Virus genome (UHGV): UHGV-0069047
Source of the DNA: a virus
DNA: 40,276 nt
Strand: one strand, 5' to 3'
Shown: positions 1,820 through 35,415 of the stretch, one piece after another
Numbering within the stretch: position 1 is the first letter of the stretch
Layout: each line of letters begins with the position of its first letter
Made by a program: the position numbers and the translations under genes
The notes under the pieces: generated by a model
Told to the model about the DNA's origin: nothing
The model's database searches: none
The model's input: the letters and a program-made list of their open reading frames with translations, nothing else

Positions 1820-2317
1820 TCAGTACCACGATTTTTGCTTCTTCAGTGAATCGTATTGCTGTTCGCAGGATTCTCCTGCAATCCGATACTTTTCAGCCTC
1901 AGCTGCTGTTGCGTTGTAAACTCGGTTGCTTTCTTCAAGCATGTCGGCGAGCACACCGATGACCTTGCTGGCTGGCGTGCCAGTGGGGAAAGATCCGGTA
2001 TAGTGTTCGGCGAGTCGCTTGGTTTTGTCAAGCTCGGCGCGCATGCTGTCAGCAGCGGCATTAGCATGCTCAGCATCAACACGCGCCACATCGATACGGG
2101 ATTGTGCTTCACGTTCAATTTGTGTTTTCTCCTGATCACGTTGTGACCTGGCCTTATCATCAGCCTGTTTCTGATCTTCCTGTGCCTGCGCATACCCGGC
2201 GTCGTACTGACGACTGCCGTGTGCATTCCAGGCTACAACTCCTGATATGACCAGAACAGCAAGCATCGCCATGATAACCAACTGTTTCCAGTATGCTTTT
2301 GCGAATGCCCAGATCAT
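1820..2317 (-). CDS. Rz-like i-spanin
   Basis: N-terminal TM helix then charged coiled-coil; start overlaps endolysin stop (ATGA); last gene of lysis cassette. Confidence 0.6.
1843..2091 (-). CDS. Rz1-like o-spanin embedded out of frame in Rz
   Basis: Alternative frame inside Rz encodes lipobox LLTAC followed by Pro-rich mature peptide; start (M46, M51 or M54) uncertain. Confidence 0.45.
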   Translation of the reverse strand: MWRVLMLSMLMPLLTACAPSLTKPSDSPNTIPDLSPLARQPARSSVCSPTCLKKATEFTTQQQLRLKSIGLQENPANSNTIH

Positions 2318-2943
2318 ACCGCCAGCACCTTACTGGCAGTGATGTATCGCGCGCGCCGGTCATCAATGCCGTTCCGGCCACCATTGATAAGCAGAGTTAC
2401 ACGTGCAATATCTCCGGTATACTTCATGCAGCCTTTGCTGGAGAAGAACCACGCCGCGCTTCGAGCCGCGTATTCGTCCTGCGCCAGCAGTTCAGGATTT
2501 TCCAGCAGGTCCACTTTCAGGCCGTTTCCACAGTCACGATAGTTATTCAAACCGGTAATCTGGATAAGTCCGCGCCCACGGTAGTTCCAGCCATCGCCAG
2601 GAGCATTGTTGCCCATGCGTTTGCTGTACACCAGATTGGCAATCGCTCTCTGGCGCTCAGGTGGCAATGGTGGTTCGCCTGCGCGTCGCCCCAATGCGTT
2701 GGCCTGTCCCTGAGTGAGACGCCCAGCCCGAACAAAGTTAGCCAGTCCGCTGACGCTGTAGTTGAAATTTTCCTGCAACCGGGTGAAACCTCCAGACTCA
2801 TGCCCGACCTGAGCAATAAACATTGCCTGATCTTCTGGTTTGCTGATACCAAACTCTTTCATCGCAGAAGTTATATGCGAGAACCAGCGTGCGGCCAGCG
2901 CCTCGCTAATACCAGCAGCTCGCTGGAATTGTTTAATCTCCAT
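2314..2943 (-). CDS. endolysin, GH19 chitinase-like lysozyme
   Basis: Motifs QVGHESGGF and [12 protein letters not shown]; start taken at internal Met MEIKQF with SD GAGG. Confidence 0.75.
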
Positions 2944-3241
2944 GTTTAGACCTCGATACTTTGAAAATTTGAACGACGTTACCGCGCGTTTTAATAACCG
3001 CAGCGAGCATGACAGCGTTGATAATGACCTCAGATAAATCCACAGCCATTGGCGTGCGGAACCAGATTGCATAGGCAACACGAACCGGAATACTGGCCGC
3101 AGCAACAATCAGGAAATAAGCAAGCCATCCTCCCCACCTTCGGTGTTGAGAGCCGTTACGCCGGAATGTGACAACGCGAATTGCTATGCCAGTGCAAATA
3201 ACTGCATTGGTGATAAGCAAAACAAGCTCATTAGTTACCAT
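2933..3241 (-). CDS. holin-like membrane protein
   Basis: About 100 aa with 2-3 hydrophobic helices, directly upstream of endolysin. Confidence 0.45.
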
Positions 3242-3641
3242 CGTCTTTTCTCCCCGGAATTAACTCGCGTGGATTATCGGAATGGTGATAGAGCCAGATG
3301 CCAATGCGCACTGCGACTATTGCTGACACGAATGCGCCAGCAGAGAAGACGATCCCTTTCTCGAAAGAGTCCTGAGTGATGGTAGGGATCAGGCTGGCAA
3401 AGCCGATAAGGATCGACGCTGTGGGTTTATAGAAGAGAAGGCCGCAGAGGAAGCTGAGCAGGGACAGGAGAACCCGGCGACGTATTGGATACTCAACTGC
3501 CGAGGTAACAAAAATTACCGCACCAGCGAGTGAGCCTAACGCCACTTCTGGCGGGACGCCAGCGATAACAGCCGCCAGAGAACCCATACTAAGCCATTGA
3601 TTTAATGATTCACTGGTTAATCCGGCTGACATATTAACCAC
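3231..3641 (-). CDS. holin-like membrane protein (holin or antiholin)
   Basis: Multi-TM small protein, first gene of lysis cassette. Confidence 0.45.
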   Translation of the reverse strand: MVNMSAGLTSESLNQWLSMGSLAAVIAGVPPEVALGSLAGAVIFVTSAVEYPIRRRVLLSLLSFLCGLLFYKPTASILIGFASLIPTITQDSFEKGIVFSAGAFVSAIVAVRIGIWLYHHSDNPRELIPGRKDDGN

Positions 3642-3729: not shown

Positions 3730-6381
3730 TTATTTTGATTCCAATAGTTCGAGTCGCTCTTCAATACGATCGCATCGACGGCGCTGATATGCAGCCTCAA
3801 GCCAAGCGCACTGGTCAGGCCGTATACCCCATGAACTACCCGCTTTTTTAACCAGCCTCTGTTCTCCGGTGTCATATTCGACGGTGACCAACTCACCAGA
3901 CGTATCGGTAATCTCTTTAGTCGCGATTACCGGCTCAAAAATATCATCCCACTCGTCATAGCAAAGAAGGCCAAATCTGGTTCCATCAATTCCGTGCGCC
4001 AAGAATACATCCCTTACCTGCTGAGCCATGACGCCAAAATGCCATCTGGCACCATCGCCCTTCATGGATATAGCGTCGAGCCATCGATACGCCACAACAG
4101 AAATATCGCCCCAGGCATCAAGAATGCTGTCTCTATCAGAAGAAAGCATTTCACTTAAATCTGATATTGCCTCGGGATTGGTTTTCAGCGTGGCATCTGA
4201 TGAAACGGTTGGGGCATTTGCAAAGTAGGCGTCTTTAATACGAAACGATGCCTGACCAAAATTATAGGTATTGTCAGCAAACGGGCGAAGACCTGTATCA
4301 TAAAACCGCCAGCGTATGGTTCCTCCCAATGCTGTCGGGTCGCTGTTGCATGCAATATCCACCGTGGTGGCAGACCTAAACACAGAAGAACTACCGCCCA
4401 ATACCAAGCTATTTGCGCTAGCTGTAGCCTGCTGGTCAAGGACCAATATTTTCTGAGAGTTTGTAGTTGCACCGGCATATGATGATGCAGTGATGCGGTT
4501 TAATTGGTTTGTATCAGGATCTGCGTTTTGCTGAATGGTTAAGTTAGATGCCCACTGTGCCGGTCGCTGGCGCACAAATACAAAGTCACCAGAAGGATTA
4601 GTTGCAACCAAATAACTAATGCCACTATCAGATGAATAATAGTTGACTATAAAAGTCTGATTATTCGCATTCAGTATTTCAACATATGTGCTGGAAGGGA
4701 TTGCCACGCCAGATATATCAGCAATGCTGACAGTCCCTGTGTAAAAATTAAATGCCTTCTGACTCATCTCCTGCATATAGCGAAGAATTTCAGTCATGTT
4801 AGTGAACAACGTACCATCTACAGGGTTAACAATCCCCTTCGCACTACGGGGATATACCCCAATGCTCGCGTGATCGATATCAAATCCGCGGTAAAGCCTG
4901 GATGCAGGTGTAAAATCGATAGCATCTTTATCAGTGGAGAAATCTTCGAAAATAACCAAACCTGAATTGTAAGGTTCAGAGCCAGTTCTTTCCTGATGAA
5001 TGTAAAGTGAATAAATGGATTTTCCATCCTGAGAAACACAAACGCCTTCATTTTCTATGCGAGTGACGTTCAATCCTGCGGCTTTCATTAAATCCATCAT
5101 GGCCTGAGGATGAAGCATTGATTCAGTTCGCTTTGTACCGTCAGGGTTAAAAACTTTGCTGCCCTGATATTCGTTATATCCTGCGCTTCCTGCCCCATCA
5201 GCTATGAAGCCGCCATAGCCGCAGACAAAGTAGTTATCACCTACCGCAATACCCTGACGCTTGTTGAAATAAGGCGCATAAGGTGAGGTGCTTTTAGTTA
5301 CATACCCAACATCATGTAACGGCAGCGTTATAGTTGACAGGCGATTGAAACCACTGTCGAACACTGCAAGTACAGTTCTTGTGATTTTCTGTCCTACTTC
5401 TGGCGCATTCTGCTCAACGAGCCATATACCTCTTCTGTAGCTGAACTGGTTGAATAATCCAACATCATGGTTTTGTACAAGAGGCAGATTGCTTCCGTAT
5501 AATGCCCCCTCCATATTAAATTCACGCAGTATTCCGTTTGTGTGACCAACAAACATTTTTTTGGGGCCATAGTCTGACGTAACCACGATTCCTTCAGCAG
5601 CGAAGCCTGGGCCGCCAGCCTGAACATAGAAATAACCTTGATAAATACCAGATATGTTAAATACTGCGACGACATTATTCGTCTGTTTAGGCTCAAATGG
5701 ATAAGTGATGTATATCAAATCTTCGCTAACGCAGAATCCTTGAGGATACATATAAGTTGCTGACGGGTTAGCAGCCATAATCGCATCATATTCAGGAAAA
5801 AGAAGCGGCATCGTAGCTACAATCTTTCTTTGGTGATTTGTAAAAATATCGTTTTTAGCGCTGTTAGGTGTAGGCGTTACACCTCCAGTAAAAAGATCAT
5901 CAACATAACCTTTATTGACAGCATCGTTTCTGTCAGTGGCATTTGCTAGATTTGATATCTTATTATTTTTTGCATCATAATAGTTAGCCAGAATGCTTGG
6001 TTTTATAAGTGCTAACCTCATCCATGAAAAACACTTTTGAATAAGCATTGTCAGTTTATCGAACGCGTCTTCATGTACCTCAGCGAAGAACTTACCCTGA
6101 TTACGCAAATCAGTATCCTGCGTAACCGGGATCTCTCGTGATATAGAAATATGATAACCGTTAGCCAACGCCTTCGACAGAATTACATTACCGCCATTAT
6201 ATCCTCCAGCATTGGTTACTGTGTAGTCAGTATCCAGAACCAATTCTGTTACGTTCCCGTTCAGGTCAGACACCTGAACAACCAGGTCTGATTTTCTGAA
6301 AATTCGAAAAGTATACGGAAACGATGTCGTAACGCCGTTACCTGTGTATTCGTTGTGGTCAACTTCGGTTGAGACCGTCAT
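3730..6381 (-). CDS. tailspike with C-terminal intramolecular chaperone (peptidase S74-like) domain
   Basis: 883 aa; conserved tail-fibre-like N-terminus; C-terminal block (SDRDSILDAWGD...GIRPDQCAWLEAAYQRRR) resembles the autoproteolytic chaperone domain of endosialidase-type spikes. Confidence 0.75.
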   Translation of the reverse strand: MTVSTEVDHNEYTGNGVTTSFPYTFRIFRKSDLVVQVSDLNGNVTELVLDTDYTVTNAGGYNGGNVILSKALANGYHISISREIPVTQDTDLRNQGKFFAEVHEDAFDKLTMLIQKCFSWMRLALIKPSILANYYDAKNNKISNLANATDRNDAVNKGYVDDLFTGGVTPTPNSAKNDIFTNHQRKIVATMPLLFPEYDAIMAANPSATYMYPQGFCVSEDLIYITYPFEPKQTNNVVAVFNISGIYQGYFYVQAGGPGFAAEGIVVTSDYGPKKMFVGHTNGILREFNMEGALYGSNLPLVQNHDVGLFNQFSYRRGIWLVEQNAPEVGQKITRTVLAVFDSGFNRLSTITLPLHDVGYVTKSTSPYAPYFNKRQGIAVGDNYFVCGYGGFIADGAGSAGYNEYQGSKVFNPDGTKRTESMLHPQAMMDLMKAAGLNVTRIENEGVCVSQDGKSIYSLYIHQERTGSEPYNSGLVIFEDFSTDKDAIDFTPASRLYRGFDIDHASIGVYPRSAKGIVNPVDGTLFTNMTEILRYMQEMSQKAFNFYTGTVSIADISGVAIPSSTYVEILNANNQTFIVNYYSSDSGISYLVATNPSGDFVFVRQRPAQWASNLTIQQNADPDTNQLNRITASSYAGATTNSQKILVLDQQATASANSLVLGGSSSVFRSATTVDIACNSDPTALGGTIRWRFYDTGLRPFADNTYNFGQASFRIKDAYFANAPTVSSDATLKTNPEAISDLSEMLSSDRDSILDAWGDISVVAYRWLDAISMKGDGARWHFGVMAQQVRDVFLAHGIDGTRFGLLCYDEWDDIFEPVIATKEITDTSGELVTVEYDTGEQRLVKKAGSSWGIRPDQCAWLEAAYQRRRCDRIEERLELLESK

Positions 6382-6557: not shown

Positions 6558-6577
6558 ATTGCATGGAGAAGATTAAG

Positions 6578-6835
6578 ATGCAGCAGTATAACTATCCACT
6601 GGAAGACGGATTTACCGAAAGGATTCACACGCCGGGAGGCGTCAGGTCACTGGTGGAGGGATCGCACTTGATGAAATTACTCCGGGATCTCGATAAGGAT
6701 GGATTTAATGTCGATGGCCCACTTGCCGAACTGACTGCACTGATTAACTACGTCACCAGCTCACAGATGTCTATGCAGGATCTGCAAACACATCTCGACT
6801 ATTGTGCCGAACAATTACGAAAGCAAACCAGATAA
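6578..6835 (+). CDS. small protein homologous to the C-terminal domain of the adjacent antirepressor
   Basis: Aligns with the C-terminal ~70 aa of the 7153..7809 product; SD GGAGAAG before ATG 6578. Confidence 0.45.
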   Translation: MQQYNYPLEDGFTERIHTPGGVRSLVEGSHLMKLLRDLDKDGFNVDGPLAELTALINYVTSSQMSMQDLQTHLDYCAEQLRKQTR

Positions 6836-6866
6836 GGTTTGCAATTACCAAGTGGAGTGCTTATAT

Positions 6867-6881
6867 TTACCTTTGCGGTAA
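6867..6881. promoter_or_regulatory. operator-like palindrome TTACC-TTTGC-GGTAA
   Basis: Perfect inverted repeat, upstream of antirepressor gene. Confidence 0.45.
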
Positions 6882-7152: not shown

Positions 7153-7809
7153 ATGAACGCTCAACTCATCCCCGTATTCAACGGCACTATATCTAACGAA
7201 ACAGCCCTACTTTGTAATGCCCGCGATCTGCACGCTTTTTTAGGTGTTAAAAAGGTGTTTGCAGCATGGATTACAAATCGCATTTCAGAATACGAATTCA
7301 TTGAAAATCAAGACTATATTTTGCTTTCCAATTTGGGAAAGCAAACATCTGGTAGAGGCGGACACAACCGCAAAGAGTACCACCTCACCCTTGATACAGC
7401 CAAAGAGCTGGCGATGGTCGAGCGTAACGAAAAAGGTCGCCAGGTGCGACGCTACTTCATTGAATGCGAGAAACGTTTAAGACAACAAGAAACAAAAGTG
7501 GAGAAGGTCTTGTCAGGCTTCATGCCCGCCATTATGGAGGCGATCAAGCTGGAAGACAAAAAAGAATACAGTGCACCGCTGAAGCCCGGCTACCGGAGCC
7601 TGATTCATTCGCCGTCTGGTGTTCTCGGCCTGACGGAGAACTCACTGCTGATGAATTTGCTGAACCAGTTACAGGAAGACGGGCATGACGTATCGGGCGC
7701 GGCGGCGGAACTGACCACCATGTTCTGCTACATCGTTGGTGTGAGCAAATGCCTGCGTGATATCCAGACTCACGCGGAGTACATCAACGACAAAGCAGGA
7801 TTCTTCTGA
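7153..7809 (+). CDS. antirepressor (AntA-type N-terminal domain)
   Basis: N-terminal block (IPVFNGT...[10 protein letters not shown]...[32 protein letters not shown]) matches the AntA/AntB antirepressor domain as I recall it; SD GGAGACG. Confidence 0.65.
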
Positions 7810-7853
7810 CTAGCGGCGGCACAGGGATGTGCCTTTAAATAATTCTGTACAGA

Positions 7854-7896
7854 TTGCAGACTGGGGGTGAATAGAGTACTATTACCCCAAAGGTAA
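7854..7896 (+). promoter_or_regulatory. sigma70-like promoter (TTGCAG-17-TACTAT) overlapped by operator TTACC-CCAAA-GGTAA
   Basis: -35 at 7854-7859, -10 at 7877-7882, palindrome at 7882-7896, strong SD GAGGGGG follows. Confidence 0.5.
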
Positions 7897-7922
7897 ACCG
7901 AGAGTTTACATGAGGGGGAAAC

Positions 7923-8111
7923 ATGGAAATCAACATCATTACATTGCTGAAGGCCATTATTGGCGGAGCGGGCTTAGGCTTTGCCCTACCAGGCGGATTA
8001 TCTTTCCTGCTTCCTGCTTTTACTGTTACAGCTGGGATAGCCTATGCATTTGCTGTGGCTGGTGCTGTTGCACTCCCTGCTATCTATGCCGCAAAGAAGT
8101 TAGCCAACTAA
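7923..8111 (+). CDS. small hydrophobic membrane peptide (62 aa)
   Basis: Strong SD; Gly/Ala-rich, two predicted TM helices. Confidence 0.5.
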   Translation: MEINIITLLKAIIGGAGLGFALPGGLSFLLPAFTVTAGIAYAFAVAGAVALPAIYAAKKLAN

Positions 8112-8112
8112 A

Positions 8113-8445
8113 ATGCCTGATTTATCTTGGCTTGCGCCCAGAGATGCACAGCAATTGACAAGGTTTTATTTCATACTGTGCATTGCTTATCTTGCTGTTC
8201 ATCTGATATGGGATGCCGTTTGCAAAGATACGCCTCCTTTTTCTTTGGATAAGTTGCAATACAAGATGAATGAGGTTTATTCATCATCTACTTTTGCAAC
8301 CAGCGCATTCTTCATTGTTATTCTGTTCGATATGAAGAATCCACTGAGAACTTCAGATGCTTTCATATTCCCATTAATTATTGCTGCTCTAACTGGCTTT
8401 ATGATCTCATTATCAGCAATAGTGCCAAAGAAAGTAAATAACTGA
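8113..8445 (+). CDS. membrane protein (110 aa)
   Basis: ATG 1 nt after upstream stop; three hydrophobic helices; terminator follows. Confidence 0.5.
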   Translation: MPDLSWLAPRDAQQLTRFYFILCIAYLAVHLIWDAVCKDTPPFSLDKLQYKMNEVYSSSTFATSAFFIVILFDMKNPLRTSDAFIFPLIIAALTGFMISLSAIVPKKVNN

Positions 8446-8448
8446 ATA

Positions 8449-8470
8449 AGCCCGCGTTGCGGGCTTTTTT
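8449..8470 (+). terminator. rho-independent terminator
   Basis: AGCCCGC-gttg-CGGGCT followed by TTTTTT. Confidence 0.65.
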
Positions 8471-8542
8471 ATGGACGAAACAAAAGTCAGTGCTACACTC
8501 ATTGACGCCACATTGAGGTGGCTTATAGATGGAAATGTCACA

Positions 8543-8704
8543 ATGAAAAAAGCATTTGCTGCACTGTTCGTTTTGTTGTCTCTGGTAGCTTCAACTCAGG
8601 CCTTTGCCGGTCGTTGTCAGCACGACAGCGATACTGCCGCTGACGGCTCCCGCTGCGGTGGGCGTTCTGCGGATTCCCGCCCGGGCGGCGGTGGCATTCG
8701 TTAA
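8543..8704 (+). CDS. small secreted peptide (53 aa precursor, 2 Cys)
   Basis: Signal peptide MKKAFAALFVLLSLVASTQAFA then Gly/Arg/Cys-rich 30-aa tail; start at internal ATG 8543. Confidence 0.4.
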   Translation: MKKAFAALFVLLSLVASTQAFAGRCQHDSDTAADGSRCGGRSADSRPGGGGIR

Positions 8705-8727: not shown

Positions 8728-8739
8728 GTGACATGTCAC
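8728..8739. repeat. 12-bp palindrome GTGACATGTCAC (copy 1 of 3)
   Basis: Perfect palindrome; identical copies at 26283 and 28583. Confidence 0.7.
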
Positions 8740-9032
8740 GTTCCTTTTCTGAATGATAGCCGTTCGAAAAATGATGACATTCCACCGCAGACAATAGCAA
8801 AGATGATCCCACCAAAGAAGAGAAGGCCAGCCTGCCACCACTCCCACCGCCATACATCCACAGCGCCAATCATACCAACAATCGCTCCAACAAACGGAAT
8901 ATAACTCACGACAAAAGCAACGGGAGCTGCAATTATCCAGTGCAACCCCCACCATGATTCAAGCCCAGCCATAATTGCTGCCAACTGAAAAAGACCAACG
9001 ACGATATAAACAATGAATCCTATAGCTTGCAT
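8736..9032 (-). CDS. multi-TM membrane protein (98 aa)
   Basis: Hydrophobic, Trp-rich; SD before ATG; at distal end of tail operon. Confidence 0.5.
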   Translation of the reverse strand: MQAIGFIVYIVVGLFQLAAIMAGLESWWGLHWIIAAPVAFVVSYIPFVGAIVGMIGAVDVWRWEWWQAGLLFFGGIIFAIVCGGMSSFFERLSFRKGT

Positions 9033-9227: not shown

Positions 9228-11702
9228 TTATTGCGGAGTGACATCCTGAGGTCGCCACCAGTATGTCTGGTTAAACTCTTTCTTCGAACGTTGCTCCATT
9301 TTACGCAGATAGCCTGGTGAAAAATACTCCTGCATCTGGTTAAAGATCATGTGATCGAGAGCCGCCTTCAAGTACCAGAGATTCGCACCTGGCATCAGCC
9401 CCTTCCCCAGCTTAACCAGATCACCACCAGTCTGCTCGTTCTTCCCTTCCACAGCATTTAGAGGTATGCCCTGAGCTATCTTCACTACGTCATCAACCAG
9501 ACCAGCTACCGGGCCAAGCATCGACGCCAGCGCGCCGCTCCCGTACCTAGTGTGGTCAGAGAAAAGAAAATCACCGTACAACCCAGCCCCACCACCTTTT
9601 AAAAATGCATTTATCCAGAATTTAACCATGTGGTCACCGGTCATTTCCTTTGGATTTCTGCCATTAATAAGATCAGTAATCTGCATGGAAAGAGCACCAA
9701 GCATGGTTGTGCTTGCTAAAAACGTTGCTATATATGCTGCACGCCCACCAGCAGACGGCATCCCCATAGCTCTATGCCAGTGACGCATGACAACGGAGAT
9801 CGGAAACGACTTAAACAGGAATACGCTACGGGTTAGTTCTCCCTTCCATGTCCCACGCTGGATGCCTGAACCGGTAACCATCTGCTCACGCGCACCAGGA
9901 GTGATGACCGCCATATCCACTTCTTCGGTCACCGCCCCGAGCAACTTGCGCATCGCTTCAAACTTCACGCGCTCTGGTGCTCCGAGATGCTCTACAGCAG
10001 CATCAGGAATGCGCATGATGCTTTCCGGCGTCAGCATCGTGTTGTTGCCTTTTCCCCAGTCCTCCTGTTGCGCCAGCTTCCATACGCTCCAGTCTGTGTC
10101 AGTAATCCCTTTGCTTTTCAGGATACGAAAATCAGAATCATCGAGGCTACGAAGGTCTGGTGTCCGTGACACTACTTCTCCCAGGCTTCCCATCATGGTT
10201 ACGCCATAGGCGCGCTTGTGCGCATCTGACCATGCTGTAAGCCCACTGGCACGCATTACCGCCGTTGCAGCCCAACGAGACACAGACGGCCCCATATTAT
10301 CCATCGCCCAGCGGTTAACGCTGCCAAGTAGAGATTCCATCGCCAGACCAGCGCGGCGCGCCCGCGCAAGTTCTGTACGGTTCGTTGGGTCCATAGCTTC
10401 AAGCTGGTTGCGGAATAACTGGTTCATTGGAAGGTTGGTAACCTTCGCAGACAGATACATGGTTCCAAGATCAGAGAACGATGACAGCAACGCGGATCCG
10501 AGTCTGCTGGCAACCAGCCAGTTGCGGATATTGTCAGACCATCGCGCGATGTGCGGATTCGCTACAGGCTGTGTCTTTCCGGAAATAAAGTTGTACAGAT
10601 TCTCTGTGTTGTTCGCCAGCCGCTCGACTTTACCGGTTTTACTCGGGTTAGCTGTTGCCGTTTCTGCCTTCACCTGATCAAGAAGAGAGCGGAAAACATG
10701 ATCGGGGTTTGGGCCATATGTTTCCACCAGTGCAATATCTTTACTGATACCTTCCAGGTGACCGACCATGATTTCCCATAGAGAGCGATCGCCATAAAGT
10801 TGTTGATATTGCAGATAGGAATCTGCATCTTTGAAATGTATCTGTCGTGATGCATTACCACGGTTAGCACGTGCGCCGGAAATTCGCATTCCGGTATCAG
10901 TAAGCTTATTCAGCCCACCAGTAGCGATCGTGTTATAAGCCTCTCCAAGAAATGAAGACAACTCGGCATCGTTCATCAGTTGTCCATCGGCTCGGATATA
11001 ATATTTGCGATCCAGCTTACCTATAACATCGCTAACCCACTTATCCTTTGATACCGCCCCAACCTTTTCCATAGAATGATGTTGAGGGATCCCCCAGTTT
11101 TCGAGATAGCCAATGTCCCCACCAGCATCATTAAACCGGCGGCGCAGTAGCTCTGTCACTTCTCTCCACGCCTTAGCACCTTTTCTTGCTTTAGCATTGC
11201 CAGTATTTTGCCCTCGCATTTCATATACCAGGTCACGCACGCCAGCTTCATCTTCAAACAGGCCAAAAAAGCGAGGATCAACTGCTTCAAATGCCTCCTG
11301 CAATTGACTCAATGCATAATCACGAGTGGCTTTTGTTCTGGATTCAACAGAGAGGAAATTCGATTTACCGTCTGCATTAAAAGCAATAGTACGGTTAAGA
11401 GCGCCAAGTTTCCCATCAGCCCCTTGATAGCTATTGATAAATTTATCCAATCTCTGACGTGCGGCTATAGTGAGGGCCACACGACGTTTCTTTAATGCCG
11501 CTTCTAGCTGTAATTCTTCAGATGCCAATTGTGCTGCACGATATAGCCGCTCTGATTCGGAAAGTTGTCTCCACGACATCGGGTCATCACGAGCAATGGA
11601 GCGCATATTTCGATAAATGCGGTCTTCAATGTTCTGTATTTCTCGCGCCGTTAACGTGCGCTGCGCCGCCTGCTGGACCGCTTGTATACATTCCTGTCTC
11701 AT
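9228..11702 (-). CDS. large internal virion / ejection protein (824 aa)
   Basis: Position after tail tube genes in T7-like order; no specific domain recognised. Confidence 0.5.
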   Translation of the reverse strand: MRQECIQAVQQAAQRTLTAREIQNIEDRIYRNMRSIARDDPMSWRQLSESERLYRAAQLASEELQLEAALKKRRVALTIAARQRLDKFINSYQGADGKLGALNRTIAFNADGKSNFLSVESRTKATRDYALSQLQEAFEAVDPRFFGLFEDEAGVRDLVYEMRGQNTGNAKARKGAKAWREVTELLRRRFNDAGGDIGYLENWGIPQHHSMEKVGAVSKDKWVSDVIGKLDRKYYIRADGQLMNDAELSSFLGEAYNTIATGGLNKLTDTGMRISGARANRGNASRQIHFKDADSYLQYQQLYGDRSLWEIMVGHLEGISKDIALVETYGPNPDHVFRSLLDQVKAETATANPSKTGKVERLANNTENLYNFISGKTQPVANPHIARWSDNIRNWLVASRLGSALLSSFSDLGTMYLSAKVTNLPMNQLFRNQLEAMDPTNRTELARARRAGLAMESLLGSVNRWAMDNMGPSVSRWAATAVMRASGLTAWSDAHKRAYGVTMMGSLGEVVSRTPDLRSLDDSDFRILKSKGITDTDWSVWKLAQQEDWGKGNNTMLTPESIMRIPDAAVEHLGAPERVKFEAMRKLLGAVTEEVDMAVITPGAREQMVTGSGIQRGTWKGELTRSVFLFKSFPISVVMRHWHRAMGMPSAGGRAAYIATFLASTTMLGALSMQITDLINGRNPKEMTGDHMVKFWINAFLKGGGAGLYGDFLFSDHTRYGSGALASMLGPVAGLVDDVVKIAQGIPLNAVEGKNEQTGGDLVKLGKGLMPGANLWYLKAALDHMIFNQMQEYFSPGYLRKMEQRSKKEFNQTYWWRPQDVTPQ

Positions 11703-34830: not shown

Positions 34831-35415
34831 ATGAAAAGTATCCAGGACGTCCGCAGGCAAAATCTCAACGACTTGATCGACCGTGAATTCAATGGTGTTC
34901 AGACGCGGATGGCAGAAAAACTTGGAACTCAGGCAAATCTGGTAAACCGCTGGGCTCTTGGCAAGAAGGTTATCGGCGACCAGGTTGCGCGAAAAATTGA
35001 AGCTGCCGCCAATAAACCACGTAACTGGCTTGATATCGATCGCTCGCTTTCTCAGGAAGGTTTTCAGCCTGTCGGCCCAAGCGACATTGGTCAGCTGGCG
35101 GCTCACAACCTGGAACGCTGGATGAGCGAAAGCCGCGACCTTTCAACACAGGGAAAACTTCACCGCGCATCCGGCGTCGCCCAGGTGACAATCAGCCGCC
35201 TGTTAAACAATGAGGTCAGCGTTTCCATTTCCACCCTGGAGAATGTTGCATCCGCATTCGGGCGTCACGGCTATGAATTACTGATTCACCCGCACGACCC
35301 TGCGACCATCAACTATGACCGCTCGCGCTACGCATTGTTACCCGAAACCGAGAAAGCAAAGATCGAAAGTTACATTGAATTTGTCATCAACCAGAACGAA
35401 AAAAACAAACAATAA
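34831..35415 (+). CDS. prophage repressor-like protein lacking an S24 peptidase domain
   Basis: 194 aa with two HTH-like segments, no Ala-Gly / Ser-Lys autocleavage module; divergent from cro-like gene. Confidence 0.55.
   Translation: MKSIQDVRRQNLNDLIDREFNGVQTRMAEKLGTQANLVNRWALGKKVIGDQVARKIEAAANKPRNWLDIDRSLSQEGFQPVGPSDIGQLAAHNLERWMSESRDLSTQGKLHRASGVAQVTISRLLNNEVSVSISTLENVASAFGRHGYELLIHPHDPATINYDRSRYALLPETEKAKIESYIEFVINQNEKNKQ

Follow-up and report, generated by a model that had tools for sequence, protein, structure and literature searches.

The 40,276-nucleotide (nt) virus genome UHGV-0069047, referred to below as the window, carries at positions 7,854 to 8,470 a two-gene operon whose anatomy and membership in the repressor regulon of its phage are, judged from the sequence, very probable. 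The operon encodes a 62-amino-acid (aa) hydrophobic peptide (gene 1) and a 110-aa membrane protein (gene 2), and it occupies a slot between the antirepressor gene ant and the genes at the ejection-protein position. The window is a Uetakevirus of the epsilon15/phiV10 type, matching Escherichia phage phiv142-3, phiV10 and many E. coli prophages, and the host phage of the cassette is a temperate E. coli phage of this genus. Our favoured explanation as a whole, to which we give slightly less than an even chance, is a repressor-gated accessory operon whose products form a membrane complex with an exclusion-like role. The elements read by the first-pass annotation, namely the promoter boxes, the palindrome, the GAGGGGG ribosome-binding sequence, the two open reading frames (ORFs), the 1-nt gap between them and the terminator, are all where it had placed them (Table 1).

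The regulatory assignment is carried by the palindrome TTACC-N5-GGTAA. The copy at this operon, ATTACCCCAAAGGTAA, has both 5-nt arms exact, with the outer base matching on the left side only, and overlaps the last base of the -10 box and the expected transcription start. Allowing at most one mismatch, the window contains 12 copies against 0.57 expected, a number reached in 0 of 100 shuffles. Site 6867 precedes ant, site 6486 lies in the divergent region between the tailspike gene and a 90-aa ORF, sites 32368/32430 precede a resolvase-like gene, site 25297 lies before the portal-side region and sites 28473/28491 before the small terminase gene, while the pairs 34713/34761 and 35473/35535 flank the repressor gene on either side. 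The product of that gene matches phage repressor families; an S24 peptidase (self-cleavage) domain was not found in it. At equivalent positions in the epsilon15 record (AY150271.2), ATTACC-N5-GGTAAT is annotated as "protein_bind: repressor (lysogeny)". The two phages share the motif, its over-representation and its placement at the repressor gene, the small terminase, the portal region, the tailspike/gp19 region and the resolvase, and they differ in that epsilon15, like phiV10, has no equivalent two-gene cargo. The first-pass description of the operon as operator-controlled is therefore far better supported, by the 12 sites and the epsilon15 annotation, than it could be when first read. The epsilon15 genome (L063) also holds four exact TTACC-N5-GGTAA sites that are unannotated (24704, 33341, 33358 and 35969), one of them between the serotype-conversion genes (gp22/gp21) and the lysis block and two across the repressor gene from the annotated trio.

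The operator and the -10 box stand in an identical register at four promoters, those of ant, of this operon and of the resolvase gene, and the rightward early promoter at 35535. Across loci the operator arms are kept and the central 5 nt are free (CCAAA, CCAGA, AATAA, TCTCA, TCACG, ACATT and TTATT), which is the pattern expected of a site for a dimeric protein. Chromosomal copies of the gene pair in Yersinia, Serratia, Sodalis and Kosakonia, which lie in phage-free surroundings, lack the operator. In a related phage, overexpression of the repressor lowered endolysin and holin transcripts by >99.9% (PMC9782041). Because the operator spans the end of the -10 box and the start site, the operon is predicted to be off in the lysogen and on together with ant. 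The ant promoter bears the same operator, suggesting a positive feedback in which Ant is made only once repression starts failing. Inspection by eye of the ant promoter and of the sequence upstream of the Yersinia chromosomal copies did not reveal a LexA box.

The promoter had been called near-consensus, which overstates it: the -35 and -10 boxes match at 3/6 and 4/6 positions (7/12), and a promoter scan of the region did not report it. We regard it as real because its geometry is conserved across loci, not because of its consensus score. The comparison covered the sequence upstream of gene 1 and its homologues in prophages of E. coli, Klebsiella and further Enterobacterales, together with viral contigs from metagenomes. 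TTGnnn-17-TAnnAT stands at the equivalent place in about 14 of the 18 distinct regions, which have otherwise diverged, the spacer and the sequence further upstream beyond recognition; where it is kept, the last T of TAnnAT is the first base of TTACC-N5-GGTAA. Within the window the same geometry recurs at the ant promoter (6839-6867) and at two more operator-linked promoters. On one viral contig (L029) the spacer has lost 10 nt (TTGCAG-10-TACTAT), which should disable the promoter; the operator and the genes there are intact.

Downstream of the operator, a stem-loop near the predicted 5' end of the mRNA may stabilise the transcript. Its loop varies in L021, L031, L032, L036 and L038, the Klebsiella leader has swapped the stem for another complementary pair (TTCAAC/GTTGAA), and the stem of L040 includes a G-U pair. 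Fold energies of this leader are only -4 to -6 kcal/mol among L007, L021, L031, L032, L036, L038 and L040. At the place of the Shine-Dalgarno sequence, all prophage homologues carry a GGAGG or GGGGG run.

We give very little credence to the alternative that the site at 7882-7896 has no operator function here, being instead a relic or a hairpin of RNA or DNA, with the pair expressed constitutively or by read-through from ant, as a true moron of the lysogen. Its appeal is that the site stands alone, without a cooperative partner close by (site 6867, the next one, is roughly 1 kilobase (kb) off), that the palindrome persists in lambdoid copies of the cassette where the immunity region does not match it, and that the hairpin after ant is a weak terminator. 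Against it, the arms are conserved around a variable centre, the -10 register is identical at four promoters, and the operator was lost in the chromosomal copies that also lost the phage; and with a start about 7 nt past the -10 box, the left arm would lie outside the RNA.

In related E. coli prophages, five different cargoes lie between one and the same promoter and operator on the left and one and the same terminator (GCCCGCG..GCGGGC and a T run) on the right. In place of the present pair there are genes for a 55-aa and a 146-aa protein (phiv142-3 and L014), for a 181-aa protein annotated as a YafO-family toxin (L016; 23.4 bits against a Pfam cut-off of 25), for a DUF4760 protein or for a 210-aa protein, and in phiV10 the slot holds a 29-aa ORF only. 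These comparisons show that promoter, operator and terminator are part of the phage backbone and that the genes between them are exchanged among related prophages. The right boundary of the slot is the terminator, which had been described as clean; this holds, as its 8-pair stem and T run rank best of the 10 terminator-like sites (2.9 expected) in the 3.1-kb region scanned. The left bound of the cassette is a weak terminator-like hairpin after ant, which is missing from the list returned by the terminator scan and accompanies the cassette into the lambdoid phage L040. Among 5,426 complete E. coli genomes, 893 of which have related flanks, 19 carry the pair, each at ≥99.8% identity, and 41-93 carry each of the four other cargoes. 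The pair is absent from phiV10, phiv142-3 and all 50,697 records of the phage collection.

Lambdoid morons as described by Hendrix and colleagues include HK97 gp15 and lambda bor and lom. The unit in the window resembles them in having its own promoter and terminator and in being inserted into the backbone with a patchy distribution among relatives. Its guanine-plus-cytosine (GC) content is atypical in part only: the reported AT-richness of the region applies to gene 2 (GC 0.375, in the lowest 2% of 333-nt windows) and not to gene 1 (0.481, against 0.488 for the whole window). The label of moron given in the first-pass annotation thus fits as regards the transcription signals and the presence or absence among relatives, and the composition speaks for it in gene 2 alone. 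It fits poorly in one respect: the phage repressor operator on the core promoter implies silence in the lysogen, whereas classical morons are expressed from the repressed prophage (PMC3594210 and PMC7067206).

The two genes are inseparable in all the material compared. Gene 1 stands immediately before gene 2 wherever the upstream sequence is long enough to tell (about 50 loci), and the identities of both proteins to the window copy co-vary across loci. The gene 1 stop and the gene 2 start are 1 nt apart in the window (TAA-A-ATG) and in 20 of 27 loci, and gene 2 often starts with TTG or GTG without a ribosome-binding site. The 1-nt gap and these weak starts indicate that gene 2 is made by reinitiation, and reinitiation at TTG or GTG explains why gene callers often miss it: public gene calls skip gene 2 or put a spurious opposite-strand ORF in its place (L007-L011, L017, L018 and L021). 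Distant relatives of gene 2 (25-40% identity) could be placed on contigs in five cases, and each has a Gly/Ala-rich two-segment hydrophobic peptide directly upstream. These five pairs come from marine metagenomes, a restriction-modification island, a prophage beside a HicB gene and a Rhodospirillales chromosome (metagenome-assembled genome), so that the distant pairs extend to Alphaproteobacteria. It is likely, on this linkage, that the two products act jointly as one inner-membrane complex. In two independent assemblies of Serratia fonticola (L003 and L005, ~8188-8241) there is a frame change near the gene 2 start, with gene 1 intact.

Hydropathy and AlphaFold2 agree with the topology first proposed, two segments for gene 1 (helices 5-21 and 25-61; predicted local distance difference test (pLDDT) 77) and three transmembrane helices for gene 2 (12-36, 45-72 and 82-103; pLDDT 72). 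The gene 1 product has a conserved core, K-A-I-I-G-G-A-G-L-G-F-A-L-P-G-G-L-S-F-L-I-P-A-F-T-V-T; its N-terminal two-thirds are near-invariant and its last helix is variable. All named members among its 34 homologues are called hypothetical, and the gene 2 family comprises 83 clusters at 50% identity in a full-database profile search. A homology search had been suggested at the outset, and it yielded homologues, both in PHROG families of unknown function, but no match to known members of the three classes that the first-pass annotation had proposed, toxin/immunity, superinfection exclusion and abortive infection. Neither protein matched Pfam or NCBIfam at E values up to 1, bacteriocin, immunity and toxin families included, and no holin Pfam match was found for the pair. 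A Pfam scan of 66 gene 2 family members returned no domain, and the PADLOC defence set matched neither gene 1, gene 2 nor the alternative cargoes. Profile searches of the PDB with both alignments gave chance-level matches only (FliR, E 0.087; neurotensin receptor, E 2.8), with no fold match for either protein. Our literature searches found no study of the two proteins. Both ORFs are under strong purifying selection: most gene 1 pairs have a ratio of nonsynonymous to synonymous substitution rates (dN/dS) of 0.02-0.15, gene 2 has 0.03-0.04 in comparisons with unsaturated dS, and the E. coli and Klebsiella copies retain about 90% protein identity despite saturated synonymous sites.

The pair occurs in four contexts. 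The first is Uetakevirus-like prophages of E. coli, Klebsiella, Pectobacterium and others, usually after ant and in some Klebsiella prophages (L010 and L035) before it. The second is lambdoid phages, which carry the complete cassette, from promoter and operator to terminator, in the interval from the Q antiterminator gene to the lysis genes (L020-L022, L040 and L044). In the third, the pair stands beside the 3' end of guaA with no other prophage genes, in Serratia fonticola, Kosakonia cowanii and Klebsiella sp.; in these cases (L006, L048 and L060) it is 60 nt to 2.4 kb from the guaA end and is apparently the lone survivor of prophage decay. guaA is the attachment site of the Uetakevirus genus (PMC9782041). 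The fourth, shared by eight Yersinia species and Sodalis, is one constant position in the chromosome, flanked by a CorA-family gene and an SBP_bac_5 gene, where the copies are kept with dN/dS ≤0.15. Retention without a phage indicates that the pair is useful or addictive by itself and that it is not lethal when both genes are present. The distribution also excludes the reading, raised in the first-pass annotation, that the homologues are simply conserved virion components, since most related prophages lack the pair and it also occurs at chromosomal sites free of phage. The contexts have no third gene in common that is conserved alongside the pair. An ABM-domain gene upstream of it in Serratia and on a marine contig does not recur elsewhere and was taken as coincidence.

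As to function, a protective, superinfection-exclusion-like role of the complex is possible, and we propose it tentatively. Repressor bound to the operator would shut the operon in the lysogen; where repressor is absent or inactivated, on infection or induction, the operon would fire with ant and the other early promoters. Gene 2 would be translated by reinitiation after gene 1, and the two-helix and three-helix products would join in one inner-membrane complex. This complex would alter the inner membrane or bind a conserved host inner-membrane component, so that entry of foreign phage DNA is blocked. In the phage, exclusion would act at an early stage of infection or induction; copies of the pair established in chromosomes would exert it constitutively. 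We lean towards exclusion because the pair is retained without a phage, because both products are purely membrane proteins, because the slot lies beside ant and the ejection-position genes, and because exclusion has precedents in lytic programmes.

In P22 the accessory genes lie between the tailspike and ejection genes, with sieA at a place analogous to the slot. T4 imm and sp are exclusion genes of the lytic programme. Pseudomonas phage Fc02 gene 10 offers another such precedent (PMC9936078). These known excluders are small proteins made early in infection or on derepression, as the pair would be; T4 Imm, T4 Sp and Fc02 gene 10 act singly, whereas the genes of the window are a strictly coupled pair with no homology to them. 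Like P22 immI and sieA, as partly described in PMC10883804, the pair consists of accessory membrane-protein genes beside an antirepressor gene, between tailspike and ejection-protein genes, but no sequence similarity to the P22 genes was detected.

Several points weigh against this explanation. Classical exclusion genes are expressed in the lysogen, the reverse of what a promoter gated by the repressor would give, and identity as high as that between the E. coli and Klebsiella copies at saturated synonymous sites is not the pattern of an arms-race gene. Repressor action at 7882-7896 is a prediction, and we infer the joint complex from linkage and coupling. In addition, the palindrome is intact in the lambdoid carriers of the cassette, whose own visible cI-cro region contains no site of this kind. 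The lambdoid operator copies could be recent Uetakevirus imports, or the arms could have a second role, which is plausible because the right arm overlaps the leader stem-loop and the left arm the -10 box.

A toxin/antidote pair is doubtful as an explanation, although nearly as likely as exclusion. Here gene 1 would be a pore-forming or depolarising glycine-zipper hairpin and gene 2 a membrane antidote made in step with it, together forming a module for addiction, abortive infection or host shutoff that is switched on at induction. The grand average of hydropathy (GRAVY) of the gene 1 product is 1.33 and it carries small-xxx-small zipper motifs, and the gene order and tight coupling recall bacteriocin/immunity operons. 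A YafO-family toxin cargo occupies the same slot in other prophages, distant pairs adjoin HigB or HicB genes or lie in a restriction-modification island, and the persistence of the pair alone at guaA fits addiction. On the other hand, toxin/immunity systems usually leave orphan immunity genes and there is no orphan gene 2 in about 50 loci; an antidote whose translation depends on that of the toxin, often from a TTG or GTG start, is likely to be under-produced; and the pair has been vertically stable for a long time at a single Yersinia locus. The lack of a toxin-family match also tells against it, and the pair is unlike the type II toxin-antitoxin systems to which the YafO-like sister cargo belongs in having no Pfam or NCBIfam toxin or antitoxin match.

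The pair might instead modulate a conserved host inner-membrane machine without any link to phage exclusion, an unlikely reading modelled by analogy on epsilon15 gp22. This 66-aa peptide with two transmembrane segments, which inhibits the host alpha O-antigen polymerase, is like gene 1 a small two-helix cargo peptide of the same genus. Extreme conservation across genera suggests a conserved partner, and the chromosomal copies appear domesticated. However, gp22 is partnered with a 10-helix polymerase and gene 1 with a 110-aa three-helix protein, no third gene is conserved across contexts, and homology of gene 1 to gp22 was rejected (hhalign probability 0.1%).

We consider it highly improbable that the pair is a lysis-timing accessory resembling a pinholin and antiholin. 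Gene 1 does share with class II holins and pinholins a small size and two transmembrane domains by hydropathy and AlphaFold2, with two Gly/Ala-rich hydrophobic segments and a basic C-terminus; lytic-phase expression is predicted, and lambdoid carriers have the pair in the interval from the Q gene to the lysis genes. That interval is, however, a general cargo site. Moreover, the window has a separate holin/endolysin/spanin block at ~1820-3641, away from the pair, the C-terminal tail is just KKLAN, no holin profile was matched, and the pair is retained in phage-free chromosomes.

A class II microcin-like bacteriocin with a double-glycine leader (MEINIITLLKAIIGG|AG...) and its immunity protein, released by phage lysis, is largely refuted and has a negligible chance of being correct. 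Class II microcin and E1-type colicin immunity operons likewise have a small Gly/Ala-rich peptide gene followed by a gene for a three-helix protein, the immunity proteins of E1-type colicins and of microcin E492 being about 110 aa long with three helices. Gene 1 has GG at residues 14-15, I at -4 and L at -7. This GG, however, forms part of the best-conserved stretch, the hydrophobic core, and several distant homologues lack it (L023, for instance, reads TVAGAGAG). No ATP-binding cassette exporter with a C39 peptidase was seen in about 20 annotated contexts, no bacteriocin or immunity hidden Markov model was matched, and the idea was rejected. In addition, the mature part would be uncharged until the last five residues and hence poorly soluble, and immunity would be co-repressed in uninduced sibling cells.

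More speculatively, and with the odds against it, the pair may be the first known case of a two-component membrane system that is widespread in Proteobacteria but has gone unrecognised, consisting of an A-G-x-G hairpin peptide and a three-helix partner with a W-D...T-P-x-F...K...P-L motif. Temperate phages would carry such a pair as cargo under the direct control of their repressor, and it would fire only on awakening of the prophage or on infection of a naive cell. If so, it could represent a new early membrane switch, acting by exclusion, depolarisation or a toxin/antidote principle, with a mechanism unlike described systems. Phage accessory cargo as such is known; the protein families and the repressor wiring are undescribed as far as our tools show. 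The slot offers a testable case in which accessory cargo is expressed from a fixed frame of promoter, repressor operator and terminator, and it raises the question of why YafO-like toxins, DUF4760 proteins and a membrane pair should all be silent in the lysogen and on at induction. A strictly paired, strongly conserved and unannotated membrane module is thereby found in phages of two types, in what look like prophage remnants and at stable sites in chromosomes, and solving its function would annotate a family of at least 83 clusters at 50% identity.

Table 1 Features of the two-gene cassette and its surroundings in UHGV-0069047
Feature	Position	Strand	Description
Hairpin GGCACA-GGGA-TGTGCC, then TTTAAATAATT	7818..7833	+	just 3' of the ant stop; read from the sequence
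Promoter, sigma-70 type	7854..7882	+	-35 TTGCAG 7854-7859; 17-nt spacer; -10 TACTAT 7877-7882
Operator A-TTACC-CCAAA-GGTAA	7881..7896	.	copy of the Uetakevirus repressor-binding palindrome; palindrome proper 7882-7896
Stem-loop GTAAAC-CGAGA-GTTTAC in the 5' untranslated region	7893..7909	+	near the predicted mRNA 5' end; fold -4.2 kcal/mol
Shine-Dalgarno GAGGGGG	7912..7918	+	4 nt 5' of the ATG
Gene 1	7923..8111	+	62-aa Gly/Ala-rich hydrophobic peptide, two helical/hydrophobic segments; phrog_13406, E 2.5e-38, function unknown
Gene 2	8113..8445	+	110-aa membrane protein, three transmembrane helices; phrog_36716, E 2.5e-40, function unknown
Intrinsic terminator AAGCCCGCG-TTG-CGGGCTT and T run	8448..8472	+	stem 8448-8466, 8 pairs, 6 of them G-C
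Further palindrome copies (eleven)	6486, 6867, 25297, 28473/28491, 32368/32430, 34713/34761, 35473/35535
Repressor gene	34831-35415		194 aa; HTH_3 at residues 106-147 (C-terminal half)
Tailspike gene	3730-6381	minus	Peptidase_S74 chaperone domain
90-aa ORF	6563-6835		between the tailspike gene and ant
Antirepressor gene ant	7153-7809		AntA domain, E 4e-26
Gene for 53-aa protein	8543-8704		signal peptide; 30-residue mature part with two Cys; phrog_14503, "membrane associated protein"
Gene for 98-aa Gly-rich membrane protein	8736-9032	minus	phrog_3075; weak holin-like Pfam match, E 0.011
824-aa gene	9228-11702	minus	occupies the ejection-protein-gene position

The flanks of the operon had been taken for tail genes; they are in fact the antirepressor gene upstream and genes for small membrane or secreted proteins downstream. 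The two downstream genes, for the 53-aa and 98-aa proteins, are small and conserved in the backbone. The 90-aa ORF on the far side of ant matches phrog_450 and phrog_15539, families also matched by the C-terminal part of Ant; it resembles a free-standing Ant C-terminal domain and is the counterpart of epsilon15 gp19.

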